Shown here piece after piece: positions 11,872 to 62,361 of a stretch of DNA of 64,000 bases (its first letter is position 1; every line of letters begins with the position of its first letter). The translations under genes were made by a program, and so were the position numbers. This DNA is from Malacoraja senta. Its lineage: Eukaryota. Below the pieces are notes generated by a model, which had not been told where the DNA came from, did not search any database, and saw only the letters and a list, made by a program, of their open reading frames with translations. The stretch spans positions 3,598,001 to 3,662,000 of the forward strand of contig CM075993.1 in NCBI GenBank assembly GCA_038087875.1. Direction: 5' to 3'.

Positions 11872-12343
11872 CAGGTGTCAGCTGCTCTACATCGGTGAGA
11901 CCAAGCGTAGGCTTGACGATCGCTTCGCCGAACACCTCCGCTCAGTTCACAATAACCAACCTGATCTCCCGGTGGCTCAGCACTTCAACTCCCCCTCCCA
12001 TTCCGAATCCGACCTTTCTGTCCTGAGCCTCCTCCGTGGTCAGAGTGAGTCCCACCGCAAATTAGAGGAGCAGCACCTCATATTTCGCTTGGGTAGTTTA
12101 CACCCCAGCGGTATGAACATTGACTTCTCCAATTTCAGGTAGTCCTTGCTTTCTCCCTCCTTCCCCTCCCCTTCCCAGCTCTCCCACAGCCCACTGTTTC
12201 TGCCTCTTCCTTTCTTCTTCCCGCCCCCCCCATCCCCATCCCCACATCAGTCTGAAGAAGGGTTTCGACCCGAAACGTCACCTATTCTTTCGCTCCATAG
12301 AGGCTGCCTCACCCGCTGAGTTTCTCCAGCATTTTTGTCTACA
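11872..12343 (+). mobile_element. Penelope-like 3' fragment (GIY-YIG C-terminus plus terminal repeat)
   Basis: ctctacatcggtgagaccaagcg...(YIGETKR..RF.EH), closely similar to 61860-62330; hammerhead-like core at 12252-12279. Confidence 0.85.
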
Positions 12344-13401
12344 TTCGAATATAGATCATAATCACTCATTAATAAATAGCATGAAACATTTCATTACTAT
12401 TATTGCTAGCTAATGAAATGCTTTGAAAATGTATTGGGGAACTTGCTTAAGGTGCGATTTTCGTAAATCAAGTCATTCATAACCTGGGGAGTCCCTGCAT
12501 TGAAGGTATAATTGGATTTGTTGCAGCTCATTGTGTGAATGTAATCTTGCTGGGTTATCATAGACTAAATCTCACCTGGTATAGGACAGGTTTGGAAGGA
12601 AATGGACCAAACGCAGGCAGGTGGGACAAGTAAGTATCTAGCAAAGTAAATTAGTAAATTAGTATCTAGTAAATAAAAATATCTTGTGTCGTTTTGATCT
12701 TCAAGACATTAGAGATTCGATTTTGATGCCTGGTAGTTTAAGACAGTTCAGTTTAGTTGTCACGGGTACCGAGGTACAGTGAAAAGCTTCTGTTTCGTGC
12801 TATCCAGTCAGCGGAAAGACAATACATGATTACAATTGAGCCGTTTACAGTGTGTAGATACATGATAAGGGATTAATGTTTCGGGCAAGGTAAAGCTAGC
12901 ACGGATAGTCTGAGGGTCACCAAAGAGGTAGATAGTAGTTCAGGATGGGGAATGAGGAATGAGGAGATGAGGGAGGATTTGGCCGTTGTTTTTGCGAGAA
13001 TGTTCAGAAGGATCTTGCAATTGGGAGAAGTTCAGGCTGACGGCCAGCGAGCATCAGAGAGATGCCACGATGCTCCTGGCGATGGTCAGGGGAGTCGCAT
13101 GAATGATATTCCCAGCAGGATTACAGAGGCACAAACCTTGGACCAACTCAGGGGACAGATGGTGTGTAGGAGGAAAGCTCTTGGGTTTATCTGGAAGGAT
13201 GAACTAAGATGATTCAATAAAAAACACCTTTGTCTCATGGTCTCATCGACAAGTGGTGCCGTGATGTAGAAACATGCGCCAAAGTGGATGGGGGGGAGGG
13301 GAGAGGGGGAAGGAATCTGGGTCCGTTTATTTTCAATGGAATAAAAATATACTGCAGATGCTGGTTTATACCAAAGATAGGCACAACATGCCGACCATCA
13401 A

Positions 13402-13770
13402 ATTCTTGATCGAATCCAACCTTTCTGTCCTGGGCCTCCTCCGTGGCCAGAGTGAGGACTACCGTAAATTGAAGGAGCAACACCTCATATTTCGCTTGGG
13501 CAATTTGCACCCCAGCGCTATGAACATTGACTTCTCTAATTTCAGGTAGTCCTTACTTTCTCCTCCCCTTCACAGCTCTCCCTCAGCCCACTGGCTCCAC
13601 CTCTTCCTTTCTTCTTCCCCCCCCCCCCCCCACATCAGTCTGAAGAAGGGTTTCGGCCCCGAAACGTTGCCTATTTCCTTCGCTCCACAGATGCTGCTGC
13701 ACCCGCTGAGTTTCTCCAGCATTTTTGTCTACCTTTGATTTTCTAGCATCTACAGTTCCTTCTTAAACAT
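13402..13770 (+). mobile_element. Penelope-like 3' fragment plus terminal repeat
   Basis: Same sequence family as 11990-12343 and 61990-62360. Confidence 0.8.
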
Positions 13771-14881
13771 CAAGTTCTTGATGTGGCTGGACCTGGACAA
13801 GTTGTTGGTGATATTTATAATATGCTGCCTGACCTGTTTAATTTTTCCAGCATTTTGCATTTTCTGGGGGGTTTTTCTAATCCCCTACACATTAGACTCG
13901 CTGCCAGGAAGCTCCCACCACCTCGTTGTAAACAACTCGTTACAAAGGTTACGTAGCCTAACATGCTGATAATTGTTCCCACTACGCCATTTTGATGCAT
14001 CCTATCGTAGACACTCCCTTTGCTCGCTACACCGCCTTCCCCACCCTACCACCAACTGAAAGCCTTGCCCGTTTCTCTCTATCAAAGTTCTGGTGGAGTG
14101 TCGCAGAACCGAAACGTTGACTGTTTAACCACCCGCAGATGCAGTCTGACCTGCTGTGTCCTCCAGCATTTTCATTACCATGTCGCTCCCTATAAGAATT
14201 TGTTACACGCCAACCGCCTGCCATGTGTTCCGCATTGCATCCGTAACTACCGTTGACTGCCCCCCAAGGCTCTAAAGTGTTTTGGGTTGTACAATATATT
14301 TTGTGGAGACGTTGACTCCTTCTCAGCTTGTGACCACATCAGGTGGGTGTTCAGAGGAAGTAACCCTTGTTCGCTGGGCAGACGATGTTGCAGGATCTGG
14401 GTCCACAAAGCCGCCTGGTCTTTACTTCCTCTCCTTGCGTATGGCGTGCACAGTCTAAAGTTGCAGGACAACTTGTTCTATTTGATCTTATTTGATTATG
14501 CACTTGATTGTTGATTGCATTCGTCGAAACAGGGTGGACCACGTGAAGGTTGCAACCTCCCACCCCGCCTGGTCTCTAATTTGATTACAGAGAATTTCCT
14601 GAGAATCGTAACGTAAATGCAAGTCCTGTAAACAGCCGCAAGCAATCTACCTCCAACTAGAGTGACCCGGAGGCACAAAAGGCTGCAGATGCGGTAATCT
14701 GGAGCAAAAAAAGAAACAAACACTGTGGCGCAGTGGTAGAGTTGCTGCCTCACAGCGACAGAGACCCCGGTTCGATCCTGACTACGGGTGCTGTCTGTGC
14801 GGAGTTTGCACGTTCTCCCTGGGTTTTCTCCTGGTGCTCCGGTTTCCTCCCACACTCCAAAGACGTATGGGTTTGTAAGTT

Positions 14882-15134
14882 GTATGAAGGAACTGCAGAT
14901 GCTGGTTTAAACCAAAGATAGACACAAAAAGCTGAAGTAACTCAGCGGGACAGGCAGCATCTCTGGAGAGAATGAATGCAAGACGTTTCGGCTTGGGTCG
15001 TCTGAGGAAGGGGTCTCGACCCGAAACGTCACCCATTCCTTCTCTCCAGAGATGCTGCCTGTCCCGCTGAGTTACTCCAGCTTTTTGTGTCTATCTTTGG
15101 TTTAAACCAGCATCTGCAGTTCCTTCATACAATT
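14882..15134. mobile_element. Palindromic non-autonomous Penelope terminal-repeat derivative nested in an HE1-like SINE
   Basis: Arms of about 110 bp in near-perfect inverted orientation; 16-bp TSD tatgggtttgtaagtt at 14866-14881 and 15135-15150. Confidence 0.85.
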
Positions 15135-17168
15135 TATGGGTTTGTAAGTTAGTAGGCTTCTGTGAAATGTCCCTGGTGTGTAGGATCGAACTAGTATACG
15201 GGGGGCTCGCTGGTCGGTGCACACCAAGTGGGCCAAAGGGCCAGTATCACGTTGCATCTCTAAAAATGCCCGCTGAAGAAACTCAGCGGGTGGAGCAGCA
15301 TCTGTGGAGATAAAGAAATTGGCAAGGTTCCAGATCAGGACCTTGGATCAGCTCTTTGCCTCCACAGATGCTGCCCGACCCACTGAGTTCCACCAAGTTC
15401 TTGTTTTTCGCTCCAAGTATAAAAAGCCAGAAAAGACAAAATGGCGCAGAATCTGGGAACACTGGACACACTGGCTGGGTGAGGCAGCATCTGTGACCAC
15501 AGCAAGCTCTGTGACCTGAAAGAAAACCCCAGAAGATTTCCAATGTTTGTTCTCGGAATCTAAATGCAAATGAATCCAAATTCGCAGATCGCATTTGCAA
15601 ATCGTCTGAGATTTTAAATCTGAAATTTTGCTTGTTTAAAATGTTAAGCCCCTTCCCCATTTACAGCCGTAGCTGGCGGGGTCTCTTCCCACTTTCAACG
15701 GCCGTTGTTACAGCAGGGACTTGATCAGCAAGGCAAAGCCATCTGTGGCCTCGCTCACCAGAGGATGGTGTTGGAATAAAGCCAAGAGTCACTGCTTGTG
15801 TCCAATCTGGCTGCCATGACCAATGTACTAGGCAATGCAGAGCAGTCAGCTTTATCACGGGGGTATCCCAATCTTGGGCAGCTTACAACCCAGTGGTATG
15901 AACATTGATTTCCCCAACTTCAAGTAACCCTTGCTTCCCCTTTTTATGTGGAGATGTTGACTCTTGTTCAGCTTGTGACCACACCAGGGTATGTTCTCAG
16001 AGCAACCTCCAAATAACTCTTGTTTGCTGGGCAGGTGATATTTTTTTTAGTTTAGATTGGAGATACAGCGCAGAAACAGGCCCTTCGGCCCATCGGGTCC
16101 TTGCCGACTAGCGATCCCCGCACATTGACACTATCCTACACCCACTAGGGACAATTTTTTAAAAACATTTACCACGCCAATAAACCTACAAACCTGTACG
16201 TCTTTGGAGTGTGGGAGGAAACCGAAGAACTCGGAGAAAACCCGCGTCAGGTCACGGGGAGAACGTACAAACTCTGTACAGACAGCACCCGTAGTTGGGA
16301 TCGAACCCGGGTCTCCGGCGCTGCGTTCGCTGTAAGGCAGCAACTCTACCGCTGCGCCACCGTGACCGCCCCTGCGATGTTGCAGAATCTCATCAAGTCA
16401 GAGAGTGATACAGCATGGAAATAGGCCCTTTGGCCCAACTTGCCCACACCGACCAACATGTCCCATCTACACTCGTCCCACCTGCCTGCATTTGGCCCAT
16501 ATCCCTCTAAACCTGTCCGATACGTGTCCCCGTCTAAATGTTTCTTAAACGTTGAGGCGATATTCCTTGCCTCAACTGCTTCCTCTGGCAGCTCGTTCCA
16601 TACATCTACCGACCTTTGCGTGAAAAGGTTACCCCTCGGGTTCCTATTAAATCACCCCACCTCCTAATTTTGCCAAAAAATGTTCCAGACACACAGACAC
16701 AAAAAGCTGGAGTAACTCGGCGGGTTAGTCAGCATCTCTGGAGAGAAGGAATGGGTGACGTTTCTATCTCTCGTTTTCCTTTCCCCCGACTCTCAGTCTG
16801 ACGAAGGGCCTCAAACCGAAACATCACCTCTCTCACACCTTCTGGTTTTATCTCTGGCCTTTGTTCCAACCATCAAAAAAAAAAACTCGCCCGTGTCCAC
16901 CTGTCACCTTTGCCTCTCCTCTCTTCCAACTTTCCTTCCACCCCCCCCCCCCACCGCCCAACCCACACTCCCACAATCAGTCTGAAGGACAGACCCAAAC
17001 CCAAAATATTACCTGTCCATGTACCCACTGAATTACTCCACCACTTTTGTTTGCCCTTCATTTTATCTTGACGACATCCCACACAATGCTCCACTACCCC
17101 TTCACTGAACCATCGTGTGGGGTCCGCTTGCCCCTTGTATCTTAATCCTCTTATGGTCTATTTCCCAG

Positions 17169-17313
17169 GATGAACATAGACAACATTGCATCAAAAATGA
17201 AGCTGAGTCAACAGTCTTTAACCACCATGGTTTCAGTGATGGACCACTTTGGGGAGATTAAGGAGCATGTCCACGTTGTCAAGAAGGACGTCGACAGTCT
17301 TCTGAATGCCAAG
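17169..17313 (+). CDS. LMAN1L: Internal exon of LMAN1/ERGIC-53 family lectin (probably LMAN1L), coiled-coil stalk
   Basis: Acceptor tttcccag|G and donor AAG|gtatga. Translates (x)MNIDNIASKMKLSQQSLTTMVSVMDHFGEIKEHVHVVKKDVDSLLNAK, resembling the LMAN1 stalk motif HFIDIKEHLHIVKRDIDNL. The paralog call rests on adjacency to CPLX3. Not in the ORF track. Confidence 0.8.
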
Positions 17314-17972
17314 GTATGATGTGAACGTTTCCGAATTTTGCTTTAATTATGAATTTGTTCTTGCACTGTATATCGTTGAGCCACAGAGCATGTTACAGCC
17401 CAGAGCCTTGGGTGTGGGCAGCATCTTTCCATTAGTGGGAGAGTCTCGAACTAGAGGTCATGGCCTCACAATTGAAGGACGTTCTTTTAGCAAGGAGATG
17501 AGGAGAAATGTCTTGAGTCAGAGGGTGGTGAATCTGTGGAATCCTTTGCCACAGTAGGCTGTGTTGGCCAAGTCAGTGGATATTTTTAAGGCAGAGATAG
17601 ATAGATTCCTGATTAGTACGGGTGTCAGATGTTATGGAGAGAAGGCAGGAGAATGGGGTTTGGAGGGAGAGATAGATCAGCCATGATTGAATGGCAGAGT
17701 AAACTTGATGTGTCGAATGGCCTAATGCTACTCCTGTTCCTTATGACCTTATGACCAGTAACAGTGCCTTGGACCCGCCAAGTCCACACCTACTAACGAG
17801 CACCCATTATCCCCTGTTATCCTCCTTGTATTCCCTACAATTCCCCCAGATTCAACCAGTGACTTACACAAGTGGTCAATTAAGCTGCCAACACCCACAT
17901 CTTTGGGGTGTAGGCAGAAGGCAGAGCACCCAGAGGAAGCCCTCCCGACCAGGGAGCGAACATTTAAAGTTA

Positions 17973-18444
17973 AGGGCCTGTCCCACTTTGAGATTTTTTG
18001 GGCGACTGCGAACGCCAGTGACTGACGCCCTAAACACCGTCAGGTTGTACGACACTCCGCGCCACCGTCACGTCAAGCTACGACACTCCGCGTCACCCGC
18101 CTTCACAACACAAGAAGGTGACACCGAAGTGTAACAATCACATTGGAAATGAACCTATCTACAATAAATCTAAGGACCAATAACTTTTTAATGGATAAGT
18201 CAGCGCTTTATATACCCGCGTCACCGGGCGTCAGCCGCAGGACAGCGTACGTCAGCGTGTGACATGGGCGCACGACATGATGAGACACCCAGATGTCGCC
18301 TGGAGATTTTGAACATCCCAAAATCCAGGGTCGGCAGGGAGACACTACATGCGTCAAACCAGGTCACGCCCCGACCACGCCACGCCCCGACCACGCCTCC
18401 TTTCAGGCTGTCGCCAAAAATGTCGCCCAAGTGGGACAGGCCCT
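17973..18444. mobile_element. MITE with TIR agggcctgtcccactt (PIF/Harbinger-like)
   Basis: Perfect 16-bp TIRs; same TIR as 59900-60608. Confidence 0.75.
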
Positions 18445-19157
18445 TCCGGCTTACCACTGGATTTGTCAGGCTGGAGTTGAAGTATTTAAACGCAATATTC
18501 CAACTGCAATTGACCTTTACTAGTTGGACCTTTTTAATTTAAAAAGCAGAATCTTGGAGAAGATTTGACCAAACTACAAAAGTTAAAGCTATTTATGTCA
18601 GAATGAAACACAAAGTACTGCAGGAACCCAGCGGGTCAGGCAGCATCTGTGGAGGGAATGGACAGACAACATTTCGGATCGGGACCCTTCAGATTAATTC
18701 GAAAGGTAATGTTTCAGGTTGGGACACTTCTTCCACAGATGTTCGTGTAAATTGGGCCGACATTTTCAACTTCAGAAAAATTCTCCGTTTCAAGGGTGTG
18801 CTTCGAATAGACTCTGTGGGGCCTTTCAAGTGTTCACGCCACGTCACGCTCATTAATCATTTCTCTCGTCATTGTAGCAAGGCTTTCTTTTAAAAATAGC
18901 TGCTGCTTTGAACAGGATATAACTTTACACGCAAATGTTAAAGGTGAGGACTTGCTAGGTGGTAGTAGAACGTTGGAGATGTGAAAGAAATCTGGCTGGG
19001 CCAGTTATGTGAAGTTGTTGATTTTGCAGCACAAGAGATTTGCCCTTTAGACTGAGAACGCTCAAAGGACTAAACCTGTATCAGCGCCTAGTCATTCTAG
19101 ATCGTGATTTTAAATGATCAACAGTCTGTCAAGTATTGACAGTCTGTGTGCTTTGGG

Positions 19158-19480
19158 TGGTCACGGTGGCGCAGCGGTAGAGTCGCTGCCTTGCAGCACT
19201 TACAACGCCGGAGACCCGGGTTCGATCCCGACTACGGGTGCTGTCTGTACGGAGTTTGTACGTTCTCCCCGTGACCTGCGTGGGTTTCCTCCGAGATCTT
19301 CGGTTTCCTCCCACACTCCAAAGACGTGCAGGTTTGTAGGTTGATTGGCTTGGTATAAAATGTAAATTGTCCCTAGTGTGTGTGTAGGATAGTGTTAATG
19401 TGCGGGGATCGCAGGTCGGTGCGGACTCAGTGGGCCGAAGGGCCTGTTTCCACGCTGTATGTCGAAACTGAACTAAACCA
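19158..19480 (+). mobile_element. tRNA-derived V-SINE (HE1-like), representative full copy
   Basis: Pol III A box (tggcgcagcgg) and B box (ggttcgatccc), V-domain-like gggtttcctccg...ggtttcctcccacactccaaagac, and an (aaact)n tail. About 20 further copies, e.g. 985-1295, 7033-7330, 23145-23445, 26284-26605 (+) and 2920-3220, 16048-16370, 19523-19840, 20382-20700, 28995-29295, 31563-31882, 58838-59103 (-). Confidence 0.85.
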
Positions 19481-21340
19481 AACTTAATGTGCTGTCAAGG
19501 ATCTTAGAATAGGCTTATTTTGTTTAGTTTTGTTTAGAGGTACAGTGCAGAAACAGGCCCATGGTAAACAGGCTCACCGAATCTGCGCCGACCAGCGATC
19601 CACTTATCCTACGCACTATCCTACACACTAGGGACAAATCACAAATTTTCCCAAAGCCAATTAACCTACAAACTTGTACATCTTTGTAGTGTGGGAGGAA
19701 ACCAGTGCACCCGCAGAAAACCCACGCAAACACGGGAAGAACGTACAAACTCCGTACAGAGAGCACCCGTAGTCGGGATCGAACCCGGGTCCCTGGCGCT
19801 GTAAGGCAGCAACGCTACTGTTGCCTCACCGTGCCGCCCTGTGCTATATCCCTTGTGCCAGGTCTTTGCTAAAGTTGCAGGAAGGAACTGCAGATGCTGG
19901 TTTACAACCGAAGATAGACACAAAATGCTGGAGTAACTCAGCGGGACAGGCAGCATCTCTGGAGAGAAGGAATAGGTGACGTTTCGGGTCGAGACCCTTC
20001 CCTCTGTCTGAAGAAGGAAGATATGCTTTAAATACTCTGCATGGAACGGTCTCATCCTTTTTCCAACCTTTTTCTTTGCGTTAAGTAATTTATATGTGCA
20101 TTTGTACAATGCAGCAAGCAGCAGTTAGGGTTAAAGGTCATCGGACGTTGTACTTGTCCTGTTGCATTAAATGCCTCCAAGAAAACAAATGGCATTTCCC
20201 CAGGGAGGCACAGAGAGAGAGGGAGAGATATGCAGATATCTCTTTTGATAGATATTCACTTTGCCAGGCAGTTTCCCAGAGGTGTATTTTAAAAAGCCTT
20301 CCAGTCTCAAGAGGAACAAGGGGGACTTGTGACCTTGGTGCTGCCTTCAGCATTGCTGCTGTTCATCTCAGTGGCGGGGTCTAGTTTAGATTAGTTTAGA
20401 GATACAGCGCAGAAACAGGCCCTTCGGCCCACCGGGTCCGCGCCGACCAGCGATCCCCACACATTAACACCATCCTACACGCACTAGGGACAATTTTTAC
20501 ATTTACACCAAGCCAATTAACCTACAAACCTGCACGTCTTTGGAGAGTGGGGGGAAACCGAAGATCTTGGAGAAAACCCACGCAGGTCACGGGGAGAACG
20601 TACAAACTCCGTACAGACAGCACCTGTAGTCGGGATCGAACCCGGGTCCCTGGCGCTGTAAGTGCTGCAAGACAGCGACTCTACCGCTGCACCACCCTGA
20701 CCGACCCAATGACAATGTTGACTGTTGCACAGGATCACCGTGGTTTGAGATGCAATGAGCTTTCCTTCCCCAACCCCCCCCCCCTTCCCTACCCCCCCCC
20801 CTGTACATTATTCACCATTTTGTGGATACTGTGTATAAAACTCCCTCCAACAAGTTGTCACAACAAATTTTGTGTGTTCCCACGAAAACTGTCCTTGCGT
20901 TCTCCAACCTGAAGCCTTGGATGAACCAGGGGATCTGCATTCTCCTGAGGACCAGATCCCAGACATTCAAGTCTGGCGACGCTGTGGTATATAAGACGCC
21001 CAGACACGAAGATAGACACAACATGCTAGGTGCAGACTCGAAGGGCATAACGGCCTCCTCCTGCACCTATTTTCTATGTTTCTAACTCAGTTGGACAGGC
21101 AGCATCTCTGGAGAGAAGGAAAGGGTGATGTTTCGGGTCGAGGCCCTTCTACAGACCTCTCTCTGTGCTCCGTTAAAAATTATAATTACACGGACTTTTT
21201 CACTGACCTGTTCCAGGACCATTCACAAATCTGCAGGAACCGACCATTGATTGGTGTTGGGTTATAATTCCCATGTGTAGCGGGTTTGAGCCATTGATGT
21301 GATGGAACTGGATAAAGTTTGCTAATTGTTTGTTCTGCAG

Positions 21341-21456
21341 GTTCAACATCTCAGCTGCCCAAAGGCACTTCCTGTCCCATCGTGTCTGTCCATGTGGCAC
21401 TTCCTGGTGTTCATTGTCCTCCAATCAGTATTCTTTTTCTACTACCTAATACACAG
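21341..21456 (+). CDS. LMAN1L: Penultimate exon of LMAN1-family lectin: juxtamembrane Cys pair plus transmembrane helix
   Basis: Acceptor ttctgcag|GTT and donor CACAG|gtaagt; in phase with the previous exon. Translates VQHLSCPKALPVPSCLSMWHFLVFIVLQSVFFFYYLIH(R), matching LMAN1 KCPELPPFPSCLSTVHFIIFVVVQTVLFIGYIMYR. Ends in phase 2. Confidence 0.85.
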
Positions 21457-21461
21457 GTAAG

Positions 21462-21479
21462 TTGTGTGTGTCAGTGTCA

Positions 21480-21514
<35 letters not shown>

Positions 21515-25000: not shown

Positions 25001-25184
25001 CCGAATAGCCTGTTTCCATGCTGTATGAGTCTCTGACTTCATCTTCCTTGCACATATTACAGTGCCAAACGAGATATTTGTAGTGCAGAAACTGGTCATT
25101 TGGCCCAACGCCGCTGGTTTCTGTGTAGGCAAGAACGGCCGATGCTGGTATAACGTGCACCCCTGAATCCCCCTTTGGTTGCAG

Positions 25185-25272
25185 GATGGAGCGTGATGCC
25201 AACTTTGCTCAGAAGAAGGCGGAGCGGGCGACATTGAGGACACACCTACGAGACAAGTACCGGCTCCCGAAG
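25185..25272 (+). CDS. CPLX3: Complexin-3 coding exon 2 (SNARE-binding central helix)
   Basis: Acceptor ttgcag|G and donor AAG|gtaagc; 88 bp. Translates (K)[29 protein letters not shown], like CPLX3 [29 protein letters not shown]. Confidence 0.93.
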
Positions 25273-44450: not shown

Positions 44451-44539
44451 TAATGGCTGTGGGGAAGAAGCTGCTCCTGAACCTGGACATTCCAGTTTTC
44501 AGGCTCCTGTACCTTCTTCCCGATGACAGGGGCACTCAC

Positions 44540-47427: not shown

Positions 47428-48421
47428 CTGGTGAGCAGCAAAATGGAACAAAGTCACTTCCTTCATCTCTAAACTTCAGAAAACGCCTGCACGTATATAT
47501 ACATACAATACAATACAATACCGTTTATTGTCATTTGAACCTCAAATGAAGTTCAAACAAAATTTGGTTTCTGCAGTCATACAAACAAGTAAAAAGAACC
47601 AAGACACAACACAATTTACACAAACATCCATCACAGTGAATCTCCTCCTCGCTGATGGAAGGCAAAGTCTTGTCTCTCTTTTTTGCACAACTTGGAACAA
47701 GAAGGTTAAATTGTAGCTTCCTCGCATATCTAATCAAAGGTTTTAAAGTGTGGGTTGAGAACAAGAATTCACAAACATTCTTCAGGCACAAATCTGGAAC
47801 TCATCCCACTGCCTCCCATATCCCACACCGCCGCCAACTTCCCACTCCCATCACGTTCCAAACTCCCCCTCCCTCATTGAAACCGACCAAACAGTGATAA
47901 GCTTGGATAGAGTGGACGTGGAGAGGATGTTTCCACCAGTGGGAGAGTCTGGGACTAGAGGTCACAGCCTCAGAATTAAAGGACATTCCTTTAGGAAGGA
48001 TTTGAGAAGGAATTTCTTTAGACAGAGGGTGGTGAATCTGTAGAATTCTTTGCCACAGAAGGCTGTGGAGGCCAAGTCAATGAATGTTTTTAAAGCAGAG
48101 ATAGATAGATTCGTGATTAGTATGGGTGTCAGGGTGTATGAGGAGAAGGCAGGAGAATGAGGCTCGGAGGGAGGGATAGATCAGCCATGATTGAATGGCG
48201 GAGTAGACTTGATGGGCCGAATAGCCTCAATCTTCTCCTATCACTTATGACCTTATGAATGATGTGTTATGGTGTTAATGGTGTGGGAGTGTTGAAATCT
48301 TGCTCCACAGCTGGAGAATTTAAGTTCAATTCATTGCATAGAAGCTGGAATCCCATCATGACATCGAGCTGTCCCACCCCTTCATCCTTAACTTTTTTGG
48401 TTCCTTTGTTTTGTAACTTAC

Positions 48422-48635
48422 CACATTGTGGCTGAGGCATATTGGCTCGAGACCTTGTACTGTGAAAAAACACCACATGGGCTGTTCGGAGTGAACTTTT
48501 CCGCGACGTACAGGATCGGATCGGGAAGGCCCCTCTCCAATCCGTGACGATATGCGTCAGCAAAGCTGTTTCCAGATCTCCACAAAAACTCTTCATTGTA
48601 GTTGATGGTTTCATTCTGCTGGATTTCAGGAACTC
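48422..48635 (-). CDS. DUOXA: DUOXA coding exon 4
   Basis: cttgtag|GA ... TG|gtaagt; 214 bp; VPEIQQNETINYNEEFLW...GLERGLPDPILYVAEKFTPNSPCGVFSQYKVSSQYASATM(W), with the hallmark NETIxYNExF and GLPDPxLYxAEKF motifs. Confidence 0.95.
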
Positions 48636-49778
48636 CTACAAGGAGATTAGTATGAGATGTTTCATAACTCTAGAAACATAGAAAATAGGTGCAGGAGGAG
48701 GCCATTCGGCCCTTCGAGCCAGCACCGCCATTCATTGTGATCATGGCTGATCGTCCCCTATCAATAACCCGTGCCTGCCTTCTCCCCATATCCCTTGACT
48801 CCACTAGCCCCTAGAGCTCTATCTAACTCTCTCTTAAACCCATCCAGTGACTTGGCCTCCACTGCCCTCTGTGGCAGGGAATTCCATAAATTTACAACTC
48901 TCTGGGTGAAAACGTTTTTTCTCACCTCCGTCTTAAATGACCTCCCCTTTATTCTAAGACTGCAGCCCCTGGTTCTGGACTCGCCCCACATTGGAAACAT
49001 TTTACCTGCATCTAGCTTGACCAGTCCTTTTATAATTTTAGCTAGAGGTACTGTTTTGCAACTAATAGATGGCTCCACTCAGATCGAACGAAAGGGGGTG
49101 CAAGTTCATCTACAGCGCAGGTTATCACTGCAACAACTCTCTCTTTTATTTTATTTGTCGACCCGAAACGTCACCCATTCCTTCTCTCCAGAGATGCTGC
49201 CCATCCCTTTGAGTTACTCCAGCATTTTGTGTCTATCTTTGGTTATTGCTGCGTGTCTGCTTTCTGCTCAGGGAACTTGAGTGAGTATTCAAACTCTTCC
49301 TTTGTATTCCAGTTTCTATTTAATGAATTGAACTTAAATACCCCACTTGTGGAGCAAGATTTCAACACTCCCACACCAGTAATGTCATAAGGTCACAGGC
49401 GATGGGAGCAGAATCATTCACTGGGTAAAGAACTTTCCCCTCCCACCCCTCACTTTAAGTCTGTGCTCCCTGGTCTTCCGACAGATTCTCTCTAGCTACC
49501 AGAACTAAACCTATCACAATTTTATAAACTTATTGTGAGATCTGCATCCCGGGACGAATATCACACAAATTGCAGAGCCACCTGCTGAAGGCAAGTGGGA
49601 ATGGAAGTGTATCGGCAGGAACTGCAGTTTACATTGAAGATAGACACAAAATGCTGGAGTAACTCAGCGGGACAGGCAGCATCTCTGGAGTGACGTTTCG
49701 GGATGAGACCCTTCTTCAGACTGGTTAGGTATAAGGGAAAAATGAGACCCTTCTTCGGACTGAGAGTCAGGGGAGAAG

Positions 49779-50097
49779 AAGTCCAGGACAAGGGGTCACA
49801 GCTTAAGGATAAGGGGGAAATCCTTTAAGACCGAGATGAGGAAAAACTTTTTCACACAGAGAGTGGTGAATCTCTGGAACTCTCTGCCACAGAGGGTAGT
49901 TGAGGCCAGTTCATTGGCTATATTTAAGAGGGAGTTAGATGTGGCCCTTGTGGCTAAAGGGATCAGGGGGTATGGAGAGAAGGCAGGTACGGGATACTGA
50001 GTTGGATGATCAGCCATGATCATATTGAATGGCGGTGCAGGCTCGAAGGGCCGAATGGCCTACTCCTGCACCTATTTTCTATGTATCTATGTATCTA
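49779..50097 (+). mobile_element. CR1 LINE 3' end (young subfamily) nested in a PLE-derived repeat
   Basis: Same 75-aa antisense ORF as the 35449, 40610 and 57592 copies. Confidence 0.9.
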
Positions 50098-50133
50098 AGA
50101 CGTGGAAGGGTAAGGTGTGAAAATGAGTCCTAC

Positions 50134-50268
50134 CTCTGAGGGTCACATTTACTCCTGAAAACCCGACATGAATCCCGATTTCGGCATTTACATTCACACT
50201 GCTGAATGATTTGTACGTTGTGTTCACCGTGGCTGAGGCTTGTTCCCAGTTATTGCTGAAATTAACAG
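50134..50268 (-). CDS. DUOXA: DUOXA coding exon 3
   Basis: ttcgcag|CT ... G|gtagga; 135 bp; (A)VNFSNNWEQASATVNTTYKSFSSVNVNAEIGIHVGFSGVNVTLR(G). Confidence 0.93.
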
Positions 50269-51781
50269 CTGCGAAGAGATGTAAAATTAAATGGTTGGTG
50301 GACCAGCATTGAACATGAAAACGTACATTAATATTCCCACCTTACTGCTTTGTAACCGACCATTATGACTCAATAGGCCCCGACCACGGGTGAACAAGAG
50401 GAAGAGGGACTGAACTTTGCTGTCTTCCCTCACAGTGGGGAAACGTTGATTCCGCTGTGGGAGATGTTTATGTTAAATTCTATTGTGTTGTGTTTATCAT
50501 ATTTGTGTGGCTGCATGGTAACTCAAATTTCACAGGATCAATTGGTGTTTGTGATAATAAATGTAACTCGCACTTGTACTTGAATTGTCCTTGACCATGG
50601 CGAGATTTTGTCTAGATTTTCATCCATTTCATTTGTAACAGCTCGTGATTCTGCTTGGATTGTTCTGTCACTTAGTGGGGATATACGGGGGTTACATTTT
50701 CATTCCTGCCACATCGATCAGCTGCTGGCACACAGGAATTAACAGCATTCTTCCATTCATTCTTCCCATAAGTCTGGTCACGTCACGTCAAGTTCATTGT
50801 CGTAGATAGACACAGAAAAAGCTGGAGTAACTCATTGGGGCAGGCTGAACCTCTCGAGAGAAGGAATGGGTGATGTTTCGGGTCTTGACCCTTCTTCAGA
50901 CTCAGGGGAGAGGGAGACTAGAGATATGGAAGGGTAATGTGTGAAAAGGACAGATCAAAGCAGACAATGTTCAAGGAAAGGTACACAAAAATGCTGGAGA
51001 AACTCAGCGGGTGCAGCAGCATCTATGGAGCGAAGGAAACAGGTAACGTTTCGGGCCGAAACCCTTCTTCAGAATGTTCAAGGAAATGTAGAATGTTCAT
51101 GTGTTGGAGGGAACTGCAGATGCTGGCCTAAACCAAAGATAGACACAAAAGCTGGAGTAACTCAGCAGGACAGACAGCATCTCTGGAGAAAAGGAATAGG
51201 TGATACTTCGGGTCGACACCCTTCTTCAGACGCTATGTTCATTGTTCATCGAACAATGTTCATTGTTGGCTGAGGGGAAGGTGACAACGAGGCATACAAT
51301 CAGTGAGCAGGAGGAATCACAGGGGGGGGAGGGGGCAGCGAGAGAGGATGTTACAGAACTCTTGTTGGAGAGAGGAAGAGAACTTCAAAGTAGGCACACC
51401 TTGAGGAGATTTCAAATGCACTAGGGCGGGGAAGTGTGGGCGCACGCAATCAAAAAATGTATTGAGTAAAGTAAAAAAATTGATCTGTCTATTTACGCCA
51501 AGGACTTCTCATGCTTGTTTAATTTAATTTTAAAAAATGCTTCTTTAATGTCTGCACAAGGATTCTTTTGTTGTCAGTTCAGTCAACTTGGAGTTAATTT
51601 TCACAGTCGACTAAAGCTATCTGGGGCTTTTCCAACGGAATGATTAATGGGCAAAGTTGCTGGCCCACTCCTGGAAACCTATGTCTCTCCATTTCTTCAT
51701 GAAGCCACGAGGGCCCACACTGTCTATGTGAGTACTGCTGTTTTCTCATTAACTGTGGAACGTTAGTGTGCATCATTATTA

Positions 51782-51817
51782 AGGTCTGAAGAAGGGTCTC
51801 GACCCGAAACGTCGCCT
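51782..51817 (+). ncRNA. Minimal type I hammerhead ribozyme-like motif (representative of many copies)
   Basis: aggt-CTGAAGA-a-gggt ctcg accc-GAAA-CG-TC-gcct: conserved core, stem II, palindromic ACGT in place of stem III, and a 4-bp stem I. Activity untested. Confidence 0.55.
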
Positions 51818-52220
51818 ATTCCTTCTCTCCATAGATGCTGCCTCACCCGCTGAGTTGCTCCAACATTTTGTGACTAATTCTTCATTGCCCTGTTATTCGA
51901 GTTTTAGCTGATGCAGCATTATGTAAGTGTCCTGCTCTTGAGGCCAAAGTGGAACAATCGGGCTCTACTTGAAAAGGATTGTGAAACTACGGTGAGTTGA
52001 ATACGGTGTTGAACAATTCAGACCATCACACTGTGCCCTTAGTTTCAACTTTGCAAATACTTCCCGTACAATCTCTATTAAGTTTGCACATTAGTAAATG
52101 AATTGACGAAATGTAGCTAGCATGCACAAGAGTCTAATCTTAATATCATCTATCATTCTTGATTACAGGAATTAGCAGGAATTCCTGGGCTTGACAAAAA
52201 TAAGGTAGGTTAAAAGAATG

Positions 52221-52501
52221 GAAGGTAGATAAAAATGCTGGAGAAACTCAGCGGGTGGGGCAGCATCTATGGAGCGAAGGAAATAGGCAACGTTTCGGGC
52301 CAAAACCCGGAAGGAAATAGGCAAGGTTTCGGGCCGAAACCCAGAAGGAAATAGGCAACGTTTCGGGCCGAAACCCGGAAGGGTTTCGTCCCGAAACGTT
52401 GCCTATTTCCTTCGCTCCATAGATGCTGCCCCACCCGCTGAGTTTCTCCAGCATTTTTATCTACCTTCGACTTTCCAGCATCTGCAGTTCCTTCTTAAAC
52501 A
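52221..52501. mobile_element. Palindromic PLE-repeat element with triplicated internal unit
   Basis: Inverted arms; three tandem copies of gaaggaaataggcaacgtttcgggccgaaaccc; TSD taggttaaaagaatg at 52206-52220 and 52502-52516. Confidence 0.85.
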
Positions 52502-52961
52502 TAGGTTAAAAGAATGACTGTCGGATATCCCAAGGGGGTGTAGAGGTGAATATCAAGATGTTACCACTGGCGGGAGAATTTTGAGTAGTGGGACTGCTGC
52601 AAGATTAAAGGAGTCATAATTTCAAACTAGAATCTGTGGGAACTTTTTCCTCACAAAGATTTCAATCCCTTGAAGTCTCGACAGTAGTGGGTTATGGAAG
52701 CTAGGTTGCTGGTGATATCTAGAGGAAGTAGAAAATGCTGGAGAAACTCAGCGTGTGAGGCAGCATCTAAGGAGCGAAGGAAACAGGTAACGTTTCGGGT
52801 CGAGACCCTTCTTCAGACTAGAGGAAGTAAATACGTTTTTATCAAGATCAGGGATTTTAAGGAATATGGGGAAACTGGCATGGAAAAGGGATGAGTCCTG
52901 GACCAGACCGATTATGATCATATTGAACGGCAGAGTGGAATTGAGGCACCTGTGGTCAAAT

Positions 52962-53414
52962 CATAGAAACATAGATAATAGGTGCAGGAGTAGGCCATTC
53001 GGCCCTTCGAGCCTGCACCGCCATTCAATATGATCATGGCTGATCATCCAACTCAGTATCCTGTACCTGCCTTCTCTCCATACCCTCTGATCCCTTTAGC
53101 CACAAGGGCCACATCTAACTCCCTCTTAAATATAGCCAATGAACTGGCCTCAACTACCTTCTGTGGCAGAGAGTTCCAGAGATTCACCACTCTCTGTGTG
53201 AAAAATGGTTTTCTCATCTCGGTCCTAAAGGATTTCCCCTCTATCCTTAAACTGTGACCCCTTGTCCTGGACTTCCCCAACATCGGGAACAATCTTCCTG
53301 CATCTAGCCTGTCCAACCCCTTAAGAATTTTGTAAGTTTCTATAAGATCCCCCCTCAATCTTCTAAATTCTAGCGAGTACAAGCCGAGTCTATCCAGTCT
53401 TTCTTCATATGAAA
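52962..53414 (-). mobile_element. CR1 LINE 3' end
   Basis: ORF 53053-53382 RRLRGDLIETYKIL...GYGEKAGTGY. Confidence 0.9.
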
Positions 53415-55003
53415 ACCCTGCTGCTATATTCTATGTTCAACATGTCTCGATGTTCTCATGATCTCAGGGTGGCTCATTGACAAAAGGCCGGCACTGAGGC
53501 ACGGTTGGTAGACCTGCAGCCTCACAGCGCCAGTGACCCAGATTTGATGCTGACTTTGGGGCTATCTGTGTGGAGTTTGCATGTTTTCCCTGTGACCACA
53601 CGGGTTTCTTTCATGTGCTCTAGTTCCCCCCCCCACAATCCCAAAGGCTGGCGGGTTTTTAGGTTAATTGGGCCACTGTAAATTACCCCTGGTATGGAAG
53701 GAGTGGGCGAGGAAGTAGGAGACATTAAACTAGTGTGTAAGGCTGATCGATGGCCTGCGTGGACTCTGTGGGCCGAACGGCCTGTTTCCGTGCTGTATCA
53801 CTAAACTAAACTCAAACTGGGTCCTTGGTCTCCCACAGAAATTCTGACAGGAGGGAACAATTGGTGTTCATTCCTCCCCTCAAACCCCACCTCACTTCTG
53901 CCCCGATGGTTCTACATTTACTTAGAAAGGTGCTGTACCCAGACTCCCATCAGAGGAAAAACACCAGTGCACTTTACTGCACCAATTTGGAGTTGCAGAA
54001 CCCATGGGGTTCTGGGATGGCAATTAATCAGATGCACATCAAGCAATAGTGTAGTCTGAAGAAGGGTCTCGACCCAAAACGTCACCCATTCCTTCGTTCC
54101 AGAGATACTGCCTGTCCCGCTGAGTTACTCCAGCGTTTTGTGTCTACCTTTGGTTTAAACCAGCATCTGCAGTTCCTTCCTGCACTGTAGATCAATCAAT
54201 CTCATTCCAAAAATTAACGACCCAGCCACCACGTTAAATATTCACTCCCTTCGCCATTATGCACTGTGGCTACATATGTGCCATCTAGAAAATGCACGGC
54301 AGTTTGTTACTCTGACACCACCTCCAAGACCTGCAATCCCTACCACCAAGGCAAGGAATATGGGAGCAGCACGACCTCCAAGGTTCACTCCATCCTGACT
54401 TGGAAACGTATTACAGTTCCTTCATTGTTCCTTGCATCGCCCGGCACGGCCTTAATGGCCGCGGGACTTATTTACCATCGCCCGCCGGGGGCTTTGACTT
54501 TGACATCGGGAGGAGAATGGGCAGTGCAGGGGAGAGACAAGACTTTGCCTTCCATCACAGTGAGGAGGAGATTCACTGTGATGGATGTTTGTGTAAATTG
54601 TGTTGTGTCTTGGTTCTTTTTACTTGTTTGTATGACTGCAGAAACCAAATTTTGTTTGAACTTGGGTTCAAATGACAACAAATAAATTGTATCATTGTAT
54701 TGTATCATTCAATTCAAATCCAGGTATTCTCCATCCAATTGGTCTGTGGGAAGACCCTCAACAGAAGGACTACAGTAGTTCATGAAGGAGGTTCACCACC
54801 ACCTCAAGGGCAATAGAGAGGGGTTTAAATGTCCCTTTAATTATGGGCTTTGAACACTGCCTGCAGCAACAATGTCAAAGTTCCCTCCTTATACACTCTT
54901 TTTGTACCTTTGCCAGCAATCATCTCATCCTACTAAGAAAGAAATGATTTTGTTTGACAAGTCACTGCACGATTACAACAAGAGCGGATGTGGCAATACT
55001 CAC

Positions 55004-55061
55004 CAACAATAACAATTCCAATGAACAGGCTGAGAGTTATCCTTGCAAGCCAGTGGAATCT
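55004..55061 (-). CDS. DUOXA: DUOXA coding exon 2
   Basis: tttttccag|AGA ... G|gtgagt; 58 bp; RFHWLARITLSLFIGIVIV, matching the DUOXA motif RxxWLxRxxLSLFIG. Confidence 0.93.
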
Positions 55062-56894
55062 CTGGAAAAATGATCACACAACTGTTGGTACAAAATGCCA
55101 TCGCGATCGCCCCACACTAGTTCCACCCCACATACACGAGGGACATTTTACGATCTTTACCGAAGCCATTTAACCCACAAACCTGCACGTCTTTGGGAAT
55201 GTGGGAGTTAACCGGAACACCTGGGGAAACCATGGGGAGAACGTACAAACTCCGTACAAACAGCACCCGTAGTCAGGATCGAATCCGGGTCTCTAGCGCT
55301 GTGAGGCAGCAACTCTACCGCGGTTGTAGTTATGGAAAACTAAGCACTGACCACACTAGGAGCACTGCAAGCAGTTCTAGCATCTAGCAACTCGGGAAGA
55401 ATACAATGGCCTTGCAATGTAATTTTTCCAGAGATCTAAACTCCCAGTGATTAGACTATTAGGAAAGACTACAGAAAGACTACAGAAATTAACGTTGTCC
55501 TTCTTGGAATTTTGAAAGTTAAAGAGCGGATTGATAAAGATTTTCAAGAAAGTTTTGTTGGACATATCAGGAGAAACTATTCCGTTAACTACGTTATCTA
55601 TGATCACAAACATACTTGGAAAACAAGAACCAGGCCTTTTAGGAGAGAAGTTAGGAACCTTGCAGAGAATGCAGAGAGTATGAAACTCTCTTCTGCAAAT
55701 GGCAGTTACGCATGGTCAGCTGTTAATTTTTAATCCAAGATTGAGTTTTTTTAAAATCAAACAAAAGTGTTATGGGATTTGGGATAAAGGTGGGTAATGG
55801 GTTACGGAATGGCAGAGGCTTGATGTGATAGTTGATGATTCAACATCGTATTCACCATGAAATTGGGATGGAGTATTGGAAAAATGGCTTAAAACATAGA
55901 AATAGACGTAGATGTAGGCTATTGATCACTCCACTCCACCCCCTGCCTGTCTGTCTGTGTGCCTCATTCTGCCATGTAATATTCAGATCAAGGTTGATCT
56001 TTCACCTGCACATTCTTCCTACACATCTTGTCTTCCCGTTCCTCTTTGGAAAATATCCGCCCTTTCACTGATAATTACAAATGGACAATAGCTGCAGGAG
56101 TAGGCCATTCGATCTGATGAAAGGAACAAAGTCCTTTGATCTAGACCCAGGGTTGGGGACAGGCTGAATCAGGGGTCGAGGTATCTAAAATAATTCCACA
56201 ATCGGGGAAGATGCTGAACGAGGAATTAGTGTTTGCGTTAGTGTGCAGGAAAGAACTGCCAATGCTAGTTTAAATCGAAGATAGGCACAAAATGCTGGAG
56301 CGATTCAGCGACTGGAGAGAAGGAATGGGTGAAGTTTTGGGTCAAGACCCTTCTTCAGACTAAGAGTCGGGGGGGGGGTGGAGATATAGATGGTGATATC
56401 AAGAGATACAGAACAAATGAATGAGAGATATGCAAAAAAAAGTAACGATGACAAAGGAAACAGGCCATTGTTGGTTGTTTGCTAGGTGAGAACGAGAAGC
56501 TGGTGTGTCTTGGGTGAACAGGATCTCATATTTCCCATTTGTCTATCTCCATTAATATGGCTTGAGGGTGCTTTAGCCTTCATTGTACAGAATCATTCAG
56601 CTGCTGTAGGATAACAGTTTATCTTATCTCTTTGAAACATGTATTCAATTAGTCTCAGTGCCTTGCTGTTTCCGCACCCATCATTCACCTTATTCTTCCA
56701 CCCTTTAAGGAGTGTATGCCAGACCATAATAACTCATTGCTCAATAATATATTTGTTATCGCCTCTCATTCTTTTGCTGGTCACATTAACTCCATGCCTC
56801 CCATTAACCATATAACCATATAACAATTACAGCACGGAAACAGGCCATCTCGGCCCTTCTAGTCCAGTACAAACCTATCCAACAATAGAAACAG

Positions 56895-57121
56895 AAGGTA
56901 GACAAAAATGCTGCCGCACCCACTCAGCGGGTGAGGCAGCATCTCTGGAGCGAAGGAAATAGGCAACGTTTCGGGCCGAAACCCGGAAGGAAATAGGCAA
57001 CGTTTCGGGCCGAAACCCGGAAGGTTTCCTTCGCTCCATAGATGCTGCCTCACCCGCTGAGTTTCTCCAGCATTTCTATCTACCTTTGATTTTCCAGCAT
57101 CTGCAGTCCCTTCTTAAACAT
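56895..57121. mobile_element. Palindromic PLE-repeat element with duplicated internal unit
   Basis: Same family, two tandem units; TSD caatagaaacag at 56883-56894 and 57122-57133. Confidence 0.8.
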
Positions 57122-57289
57122 CAATAGAAACAGTTTCCTTTTATTAATTTTTTCACCCCATAATTAATTTTATTATTAAATCTTCCCTGAAACCATTCAT
57201 TAGGAATCTGATTGAGGCTCCATCTGAAGCCCTTGAATTCCCGAAAGGTTGCTGCGGAGGTAAAAACACGAACTAAGATAGGTACTTAC

Positions 57290-57436
57290 TTCAGCTCCGC
57301 GGATGCCAATGAGTATTATGAGGAAAGACACCAGGAAAACTAAAAAAATAATAATGACCACGATTTCGATGGTGTTGAACCCTACTGGTGTCCGCGCTGT
57401 TGGGTAGAAGGGGTAAAGGCCATCGTAAAAGGTCAT
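57290..57436 (-). CDS. DUOXA: Dual oxidase maturation factor, coding exon 1
   Basis: MTFYDGLYPFYPTARTPVGFNTIEIVVIIIFLVFLVSFLIILIGIRGAE; 147 bp; donor GAA|gtaagt. An acceptor (tatttcag) 22 nt upstream of the ATG, exon start 57458, implies an upstream non-coding exon. Confidence 0.93.
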
Positions 57437-57517
57437 CTTTGCGGTCTCTTGTGATCGTCTGAAATACATGATATTACAGAGTAAAATGAACCATATTCAG
57501 TACAGATATCATGCCAT

Positions 57518-59899: not shown

Positions 59900-60608
59900 A
59901 GGGCCTGTCCCACTTGGGTGTCATTTGCGCGTCACGCAGGTGGCGCGCGAAGATTTTGTGATTCCCTAAATCCTGGGGCGCCGCGCGACACCCGTGTCGT
60001 GACGTGTAAATGATGTCGCGTAAATGACAATAGACAACAGACAATAGGTGCAGGAGTAGGTCATTAGGCCCTTTGAGCCAGCACCGCCATTCAATGTGAT
60101 CATGGCTGATCATCCCCAATCAGTACCCCGTTCCTGCCTTCTCCCCATATCCCCTGACTCCGCTATTTTTAAGAGCCCTATCTAGCTCTCTCTTGAAAGT
60201 ATCCAGAGAACCTGCCTCCACCGCCCTCTGAGGCAGAGAATTCCACAGACTCACCACTCTCTGTGAGAAAAAGTGTTTCCTCGTCTCCGTTCTAAATGGC
60301 TTACTCCTTATTCTTAAACTGTGGCCCCTGGTTCTGGACTCCCCCAACATCGGGAACATGTTTCCTGCCTCTAGCGTGTCCAAGCCCTTAACAATCTTAT
60401 ATGTTTCAATGAGATCCCCCTCATCCTTCTAAACTCCAGAGTGTACAAGCCCAGCCGCTCCATTCTCTCAGCATATGACAGTCCCGCCATCCCGGGAATT
60501 AACCTTGTAAACCTACGCTGCACTCCCTCAATAGCAAGAATGTCCTTCCTCAAATTAGGAATGTCCTTCCTCAAATTAGCCCAATGACGCTCAAGTGGGA
60601 CAGGCCCT
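59900..60608. mobile_element. MITE with TIR agggcctgtcccacttg and 3-bp TSD tca, interrupted by a CR1 fragment
   Basis: tca|agggcctgtcccacttg ... caagtgggacaggccct|tca. Confidence 0.75.
60027..60580 (-). mobile_element. CR1 LINE 3' end, (CTATTGT)n-tail subfamily, nested in a MITE
   Basis: ORFs 60120-60383 and 60371-60784. Relatives at 24030-24320 (-) and 25357-25645 (+). Confidence 0.88.
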
Positions 60609-61035
60609 TCAGTCCTGATGCAGGGTATCGACCCGAAAGACAGATTATGCCTTTGCCTCCACAGATGATGCTTGACTGGCCGAGTTTCTCCAGCAGTTTG
60701 TTTTTGCCAGTAAACCACAATGCCATTTATACTAAATAGTTTTTGTACTGGGTGTAATCCAAAAATTACTGCCTTAGAAGGCACAGAATCTGCAACTCCG
60801 CGACATGAAGCTCAGATGACTAATTTCGGGCTAGTATACTGCCGCAAGGGACAGAAGCCCAAGCCTATGATCCTCCCGCTCCAAGAACTTTTGCGCTTGT
60901 TCTGTGACAGTCTGAAGCCTTGTAAAGCAATTTACCACAGTCAGTACCCACCGATGCAGTAGCATTGTCAAAACTCAGAACACCAAAGAAGCGTACACAT
61001 TATTAATCTTGGGTTCCAATAAAGTTCTTTTAAGG

Positions 61036-62361
61036 TACACAAAAATGCTGGAGAAACTCAGCGGGTGCAGCAGCATCTATGGAGCGAAGGAAATAGGCAA
61101 CGTTTCGGGCCGAAACCCTTCTTCAGACTGATAGGGGGTGAGGAGAAGAAAGGAAAAAAGGCGGAGGAGGAGCCCGAGGGCTGGGGGAGGGGAGGAGACA
61201 ACCAGAGGGCTGATGAAGGGGAGGGGACAGCAAGGGCTAGCAGAATTGGGAGAATTCAATGTTCAAGCCCCCAGGATGTAGACTGCCCAAGCGGAATATG
61301 AGGTGCATTTCCTCCAATTTCCGGTGTTGCTCGCTGTGGCCATGGAGGAGACCCAGGACAGAGAGGTCAGATACGGAATGGGAGGGGGAGTTGAAGTGCT
61401 GAGCCACCGGGAGCTCAGGTTGGTTATTGCGGACCGACCGGAGGTGTTCGGCGAAACGATAATTTCTGTGTCATTTCTCTTTATCTCATCTGCAACCTAA
61501 CAAGGGCAGAGTCCCCCTAGTCCTCACCTTTCACCCCACCAGCCGTCACATACAACGTGATCCTCCGTCAGTTTCGCCACCTCCAACGTGACCCCACCAC
61601 TCGCCACATCTTCCCATCTCCCCCCATGTCTGCCTTCCGCAAAGACCGCTCCCTCCGTAACTCCCTTGTCAATTCTTCCCTTCCCTCCCATACCACCCCT
61701 TCCCCGGGTACTTTCCCTTGCAACCGCAAGAGATGCAACACTTGTCCCTTCACCTCCCCCCTCGACTCCATTCAAGGACCCAAGCAGTCGTTCCAGGTGC
61801 GACAGAGGTTCACCTGCATCTCCTCCAACCTCATCTATTGCATCCGCTGCTCTAGATGCCAGCTGATCTACATCGGTGAGACCAAGCGGAGGCTTGGCGA
61901 TCGTTTCGCCGAACACCTCCGGTCGGTCCGCAATAACCAACCTGACCTCCCGGTGGCTCAGCACTTCAACTCCCCCTCCCATTCCGTATCTGACCTCTCT
62001 GTCCTGAGTCTCCTCCATGGCCACAGCGAGCAACACCGGAAATTGTAGGAAATGCACCTCATATTCCGCTTGGGCAGTCTACATCCTGGGGGCTTGAACA
62101 TTGAATTCTCCCAATTCTGCTAGCCCTTGCTGTCCCCTCCCCTTCATCAGCCCTCTGGTTGTCTCCTCCCATCCCCCAGCCCTCGGGCTCCTCCTCCGCC
62201 TTTTTTCCTTTCTTCTCCCCACCCCCTATCAGTCTGAAGAAGGGTTTCGGCCCGAAACGTTGCCCATTTCCTTCACTCCATAGATGCTGCTGCACCCGCT
62301 GAGTTTCTCCAGCATTTTTGTGTACCTTCGATTTTCCAGCATCTGCAGTTCCTTCTTTAAC
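61036..62361 (+). mobile_element. 5'-truncated Penelope-like element: GIY-YIG endonuclease remnant with inverted terminal arms
   Basis: ORF 61557-62048 contains C-x4-C-x2-C and NLIYCIRCSRCQLIYIGET..RF.EH (GIY-YIG). About 61032-61460 is the reverse complement of 61900-62328. 15-bp TSD aaagttcttttaagg at 61021-61035 and 62362-62376. Confidence 0.9.

Follow-up and report, generated by a model that had tools for sequence, protein, structure and literature searches.

The 64,000-nucleotide stretch of Malacoraja senta DNA analysed here (assembly GCA_038087875.1, contig CM075993.1, positions 3,598,001 to 3,662,000; the window) raises the question of what the hammerhead-ribozyme motif recurring on both of its strands is, and how its copies were inserted. 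The core, CTGAAGA-A-(stem II)-GAAA-CG-T(C/T), starts at 12252, 13640, 27274, 39730, 51786 and 62234 on the plus strand and at 26098, 51072, 52816 and 61126 on the minus strand. An earlier reading made from the letters alone (the sequence-only reading) had pointed to these ten sites; all of them were present, one of the coordinates, 61080, being about 20 nt off. The repeats are probably the hammerhead-plus-tail end of a Neptune-type Penelope-like element (PLE), inserted singly or head-to-head with target duplications, presumably via run-off of the reverse transcriptase (RT) at the 5' end of the uncut RNA. The parent element, two 3' ends (near +94 and +130, counted from the core), a 5' pile-up, the duplications and a near-neutral decay of the copies were observed directly.

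The motif and its parent element

A strict descriptor of the motif resulted in 11 matches in the window and 24 in a genome sample of 519,600 bases (52 spaced 10-kb stretches from the 23 largest contigs only, without length weighting), and in 0 matches in each of 10 shuffles; the descriptor search suggested in the sequence-only reading thus showed that the motif is not due to chance. The CUGANGA and GAAA boxes were retained in all ten cited copies, and the extra base before G10.1 and the G10.1-C11.1 pair fitted the minimal form of the ribozyme. The extra A after the CUGANGA box, previously listed as a caveat, is real and is a described feature of minimal PLE hammerheads. Stem II, given before as GGG/CCC, is better described as a 4-bp stem capped by a tetraloop; it was fully paired (4/4 bp) in 8 of the 10 copies, the exceptions being 13640 (extra C) and 26098 (mismatch). 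Stem I, put before at 2-4 bp, was 1-2 bp in nine of the ten copies and reached 4 bp only in 51786; among the 35 descriptor matches it was 2 bp in 24 and 3-4 bp in 4. Instead of the helix I of 4-5 bp expected of a minimal PLE hammerhead, the 2-bp variant of Drosophila virilis was matched. Stem III is palindromic and loopless, with ACGU or AACGUU as a self-duplex; CG was found in 80 copies, and the remainder was mostly CpG decay. The earlier assignment to minimal type I hammerheads with a palindromic stem III is supported. No hammerhead family was detected among the 51 Rfam matches of the window down to E=5, as the minimal forms are evidently outside Rfam coverage.

The minimal type I PLE hammerheads described by Cervera and De la Pena (2014, PMC4209133; parts of the paper covered) likewise have the CUGANGA and GAAA boxes, an extra base between 9 and 10.1, G10.1-C11.1 and a palindromic 15.2/16.2 without loop III, occur mainly as dispersed single copies, and were reported in fish Neptune, Poseidon and Xena. 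In contrast to the typical forms there, stem I in Malacoraja is 2 bp, as in the D. virilis variant, and stem II has 4 bp capped by a tetraloop. The main-text portion covered mentions no cartilaginous fish, the supplements lying outside it.

The proposed Penelope origin was supported by the finding of a full-length RT-GIY-YIG parent. In translation, the sequence ahead of the motif at 61,499-62,120 encodes a CxxxxCxxC linker and a GIY-YIG/CCHH endonuclease. The endonuclease protein had 85,103 candidate matches in the genome; among 150 scored, many were 94-99% identical and some lay in frames of up to 968 amino acids (aa). The order at locus L013 is unit (the profile of about 135 nt used for the searches), 5' region, RT-endonuclease (GIY-YIG) frame, pyrimidine-rich pseudo-long terminal repeat (pseudo-LTR) and another unit, whose tail is shorter. 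Short copies aligned at 91-100% to the terminal unit of this full-length element. RVT_1 and GIY-YIG were in one frame in all three long frames, both matches being just below the curated cut-offs. The CX2-5CxxC linker and the CCHH motif, shared by Neptune and Nematis, were visible in the translations, and the pseudo-LTRs, inverted copies and optional tail of Neptune-type PLEs were all present. Similarly, Neptune-clade PLEs in the covered passages of Craig et al. (2021, PMC8557442) have RT followed by the CX2-5CxxC linker and GIY-YIG with CCHH, as well as 5' truncation, partial tandems, inverted copies and an optional 30-40 bp tail. There, this linker is a mark of the clades Neptune and Nematis, and of these two the vertebrate reports concern Neptune (bioRxiv 10.64898/2026.07.22.740005, portion covered).

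Unlike the Neptune PLEs of PMC8557442, which have one open reading frame, the full-length copies (L013:3495-7201; L015; L020) carried two frames, one upstream of about 450 aa and a distinct one for RT and endonuclease that overlaps it, an arrangement that could reflect recoding or splicing. A strong splice-donor-like site was located at L013:3410-3420, at the first ATG after the tail, with no spliced joint listed at the low RNA depth. More than half of the young sampled copies were unit-only with a common 5' boundary, of which there is no description in the covered passages of PMC8557442.

The unit profile gave 72 matches in the window and 226 in the genome sample (298 in 584 kb together), and 0 in reversed sequence. 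The unit density was 1.1 matches per kb in the window versus 0.43 in the sample, and several small-contig stretches were high. The very high copy number claimed earlier was borne out by 19,101 and 18,728 exact genome copies of two 28-nt core variants (control 0). Roughly extrapolated, the genome would contain some 845,000 fragments, with the core intact in about 90,000 (58,000-134,000), more than the 4,000-9,000 of coelacanth and Xenopus in the covered part of PMC4209133, where the descriptors differ. The commonest copy form was the bare unit of 95-130 nt. The statement that the motif always follows a GIY-YIG remnant did not hold: an endonuclease match within 600 nt upstream was found for only 6 of the 72 window matches, two of these being older neighbours and 12252, 13640, 61126 and 62234 true followers (4/72), and for 12 of the 226 matches in the genome sample.

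Ends of the copies and the proposed copying mechanism

The 3' ends of 70 consecutive exact-core copies on contig C1 were at +93 to +96 from the core in 35 copies and at +128 to +134 in 17. Target duplications of 8-21 bp were detected in 21 of 38 short copies, compared with 28 of 1,406 mismatched pairs having at least 8 bp. The window examples had duplications of 12-16 bp, and none longer than 7 bp was found in 3 of the 7 inverted pairs tested. Head-to-head pairs comprised 128 of the 298 matches, the pair counts being 66 head-to-head, 7 tail-to-tail and 11 tandem. At head-to-head junctions the core segment was seen two- or threefold (window 52310-52376 and 56986-57018; L100), as if copying had restarted near the 5' boundary. 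The two fixed 3' ends, the duplications and the paired inserts match the behaviour of the anole Poseidon protein (PAc; Frangieh et al. 2024, PMC11167929, parts covered), which introduces nicks in both strands, extends each of them and initiates at two fixed internal sites that define the tail. Its main template was uncut RNA, and RNA ends were absent at the cut. Poseidon PAc belongs to another clade and its open reading frame begins inside the hammerhead, whereas the ATG of the first long frame here is 163 nt past the core.

For the 5' ends, copies were chosen by their tail to avoid selection on the core, and the first 72 of 21,873 matches were used. Relative to the first core base, 40 ends were in -6 to +10, 2 in -16 to -7, and 0 in -137 to -17; another 18 reached -138 or farther, the fetched flank or the reference setting the limit for 13 of these. 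Further ends were in +11 to +24 (4), in +25 to +31 (4; the cut is at +28) and beyond (4). The 5'-end rate at the boundary was elevated about 20-fold, in an interval picked post hoc, after data inspection. As few 5' ends were at the cleavage site and most at the front edge of the core, the data suggest that most templates were uncut and that copying halted at the front edge of the hammerhead. The simplest cause of the pile-up suggested by these values is the 5' end of the RNA, i.e. run-off. No sequence common to the short copies ahead of the core was recognized by eye, and a spliced-template model was rejected, as the short copies had no shared exon there. All five subfamily consensuses have TCAGT directly before the core, although no more than its GT pairs in stem I, and this sequence fits the initiator consensuses (PMC4581360, part covered). 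By eye, the initiator fitted, the motif ten element (MTE) matched at 7-9 of 12 positions and the downstream promoter element (DPE) was off-register; these were not counted as proof. A cap-derived G at the junctions formed no clear pattern by eye. In the parts of the D. virilis Penelope studies covered, an internal TATA-less promoter is described (PMC2377424), the intron ends at helix I, and transcription starts about 120 nt upstream (PMC4209133, PMC2377424).

In the run-off reading, the element's own RT would start in the tail of the uncut RNA and run off the RNA 5' end just ahead of the hammerhead core. The initiator-like TCAGT immediately ahead of the core would be the transcription start; for long copies, either an RNA that reads through or a jump onto the unit copy at the 3' end would be required, and head-to-head pairs may arise by priming on both nicked strands. 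Selection would likely maintain the ribozyme only in master elements, where its cutting would be weak and would take place in dimers or together with the protein of the element. A further-reaching proposal, which we put forward only tentatively, is that the hammerhead lies at the very start of the element RNA and overlaps the internal promoter, that the short copies (stubs) are inserted 'strong-stop' cDNAs, and that long copies are made by a retrovirus-like jump between unit copies. No description of the boundary, the family or the strong-stop model was found in the literature covered, to which subscription papers, repeat databases and supplements did not belong.

Several observations weigh against run-off from the RNA 5' end of a Neptune-type element. 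The clade of this putative Neptune-type parent was assigned by motifs. The 72 tail-selected copies were taken in order of match from a single contig and a single young subfamily and are not a random sample. A 3' splice site, like that of D. virilis, is an equally good reading of the TCAGT region, and the spacing of the downstream promoter motif departs from the canonical one by 3 nt. The RNA evidence is one raw run, X24 (about 6% read), of poly-A fragments from an apparently related species, which would miss circles; no pile-up at the proposed start was found in it. In addition, junctions at +28 had a raw two-fold excess (143 versus 56-74 at the nearest positions), corresponding to at most about 1% of copies, and some templates may be cut. 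The genome-wide junction patterns were 74 (+26), 72 (+27), 143 (+28), 56 (+29), 16 (+30) and 125 (+32). Much of the excess is attributable to microhomology: by hand count, 9 of 20 inspected +28 loci were deletions, hairpins or microhomology-ambiguous, and 72 of the first 100 listed +28 loci were in classes that microhomology can explain. Of 25 ends lying in +12 to +45, 3 were at +27 to +29 (p=0.38). Two loci, L251 and L255, have junctions with other element parts and then restart exactly at the predicted cut.

Ribozyme, RNA and rival explanations

Core and tail were both covered by 171 of the 298 matches, 102 of them in five tail-defined clusters, and all 11 core bases were retained in 61 of the 171 copies. 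Between clusters, 0 of 11 core columns varied versus 20 of 61 tail columns (p=0.03). Within clusters, the non-CpG core differed in 60 of 981 cells (6.1%) versus 484 of 5,934 in the tail (8.2%, p=0.03), where the profile favours matching cores. The variation in stems I and II was one-sided only (U-A/U-G). The excess conservation of the core anticipated earlier was therefore seen between subfamilies, with hardly any among inserted copies. As the core is fixed between clusters and its decay within them is near-neutral, selection appears to act on the master elements, with little or none after insertion. Predicted folds paired the core with the tail instead of forming the hammerhead, and in 3 of 3 copies the predicted monomer pairing was ≤0.014 for stem II and ≤0.0001 for stem I. 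No activity is predicted for copies standing alone in introns.

In run X24 the unit depth was 2,990 and 2,705 on the two strands, and 93% of the reads continued into other sequence. Due to the near-equal strands and this continuation, the expression of the unit looks passive. The long-copy-only parts L013:2985-3154 and 3393-3460 had a two- to three-fold strand skew in the same run, its polarity being uncalibrated (2-3 DuoxA exon reads).

The same element could have a 5' pile-up of another origin, namely an RT block (by a folded or dimerised hammerhead, a bound protein or the C-rich tract ahead) or acceptor-site splicing. The spread of the ends over about 17 nt, the stuttered re-copying of the core segment, and the pyrimidine tract and CAG ahead of the core, like the D. 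virilis intron end, would fit such an origin. However, copies passing the boundary had 0 end events in 2,178 nt at risk (a 120-nt span), the short copies lack a common upstream exon and the monomer fold is predicted to be unstable, and we consider this explanation unlikely. Far less probable is a retrozyme-like family, or one resembling a short interspersed element (SINE), in which a non-autonomous unit would be self-transcribed, cut and circularised by the hammerhead and copied in trans. The type I hammerhead, the PLE kinship and the high copy number are shared with non-LTR retrozymes (PMC7229834; bioRxiv 10.64898/2026.07.22.740005; parts covered), for which the latter source proposes an origin from the terminal repeats of PLEs. 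The bare unit is also the prevailing copy form, and it includes the region where RT starts and possibly a promoter. In contrast, retrozymes are defined as tandem repeats, of 150-450 bp and yielding circular RNAs, whereas single or inverted insertions with target duplications were found here. Only 10 same-strand neighbours within 500 nt were counted among 182 core-covering matches, with irregular spacing, and the few tandem pairs of the 584-kb sample had no regular period, unlike retrozyme-type repeats with the hammerhead in consecutive units, although rare arrays may occur elsewhere. Moreover, the units start at the 5' edge of the core and not at the cut, and their sequence is common to short and long copies. 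The retrozyme-like non-autonomous family of the sequence-only reading is thus replaced by an element with a full-length parent, rare tandem pairs (11 versus 66 head-to-head) and mostly uncut templates.

The sequence-only reading had also placed sense copies in the LMAN1L, CPLX3 and DUOXA pre-mRNAs, and each of the three genes does contain sense copies with an intact core; LMAN1L and CPLX3 are presumptive names, based on synteny. Such placement is explained by the density of the family, about one match per kb in the window. That intronic sense copies cut host pre-mRNAs and regulate the LMAN1-like, complexin or DuoxA transcripts is hardly credible. The intact cores within the three genes were 7 sense and 1 antisense, and pairing of two copies through the palindrome is feasible (-3.1 to -3.5 kcal/mol), but all unit matches there were 27 sense versus 24 antisense (p=0.78; small numbers) and G12 decays like any CpG site (different in 26 of 102 copies). 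Dimers of such motifs cut poorly in vitro (PMC4209133, part covered), and the anole PLE ribozyme requires the element's protein (PMC11167929, part covered). No read-end pile-up at the cut was detected in run X24, and no sign of depletion or regulation by intronic copies was found in the three host genes (small numbers, the same run).

Features of the window and meaning of the record

Element copies and host genes of the window, with core positions where a core is present.
Feature	Position	Strand	Remarks
Neptune-type PLE copy, 5'-truncated	61499..62362	+	RT end, CxxxxCxxC linker, GIY-YIG/CCHH endonuclease with in-frame stops, pyrimidine-rich pseudo-LTR, core 62234-62261, long tail
Inverted partner of the 61499..62362 copy	61032..61460	-	endonuclease end, pseudo-LTR, core 61126-61099, short tail
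Truncated older-subfamily copy with endonuclease remnant	11873..12349	+	core 12252-12279; sense inside LMAN1-like gene
Truncated copy with endonuclease end	13411..13769	+	core 13640-13668, stem II extra C; sense in LMAN1-like gene
Head-to-head unit pair	14882..15130	.	core at +15002; 16-bp flanking duplication
Unit with stem II mismatch	26001..26103	-	core 26098-26071; complexin intron, antisense
Unit with about 60 nt of pseudo-LTR	27214..27402	+	core 27274-27301; complexin intron, sense
Bare unit beginning at core	39725..39858	+	core 39730-39757; intergenic
Bare unit	50973..51077	-	core 51072-51045; 14-bp target duplication ends at core; DuoxA intron, sense
Bare unit	51781..51877	+	core 51786-51813; sole cited 4-bp stem I, partly flank-derived; antisense to DuoxA
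Head-to-head pair, inner core-segment repeats stuttered	52218..52501	.	15-bp flanking duplication
Bare unit	52732..52820	-	core 52816-52789; 12-bp target duplication; DuoxA intron, sense
RT-region remnant of the same PLE	10116..10689	-	sequence match
ERGIC-53/LMAN1-like gene, C-terminal exons	17146..21457	+	lectin exons about 26 kb upstream of the window
Complexin gene, last two coding exons	25183..34581	+	host
DuoxA coding exons	44453..57496	-	host

The entire insert at 61032-62362 is bordered by a 15-bp duplication. A DuoxA intron was spliced in contigs of two RNA runs; these differed from the window at many positions and come from apparent relatives, whose insertions may differ. No lectin exon was detected by Pfam among 101 window frames, a subset of the candidate frames, and the LMAN1-like gene was placed by other searches. 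On contig C1 (369234017-369388346) a lectin gene is present twice, inverted and with near-identical scores, which is either a recent duplication or an assembly artefact. Other abundant repeats of the window (1221-1291 and 13 more; 35371-35884, 40402-40915 and others; 8678-9058), some of them 99% identical, belong to families that we take to be SINE-like and similar to long interspersed elements (LINE-like); one frame of the window repeats matches PF09004. The exons of the LMAN1-like gene and those of the complexin gene have an assembly gap of 200 N (21816-22015) between them, beside a TG-rich tract (21500-21800); a long CT-rich tract is at 36800-37600.

Minimal hammerheads are expected in Penelope-like repeats, and here they form the terminal repeat of a very abundant element, probably of Neptune type. 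The value of the finding is that a young and numerous family in a vertebrate preserves, in a large set of natural insertions, the traces of a copying mechanism that is still poorly understood. If the strong-stop proposal is true, one model would account for the PLE tail, the pseudo-LTRs and the partial tandems, and hundreds of thousands of stubs would map the copying mechanism. The fixed 3' ends, the sharp 5' boundary and the duplications make the start of PLE RNA, the formation of pseudo-LTRs and the cutting by the hammerhead directly testable.

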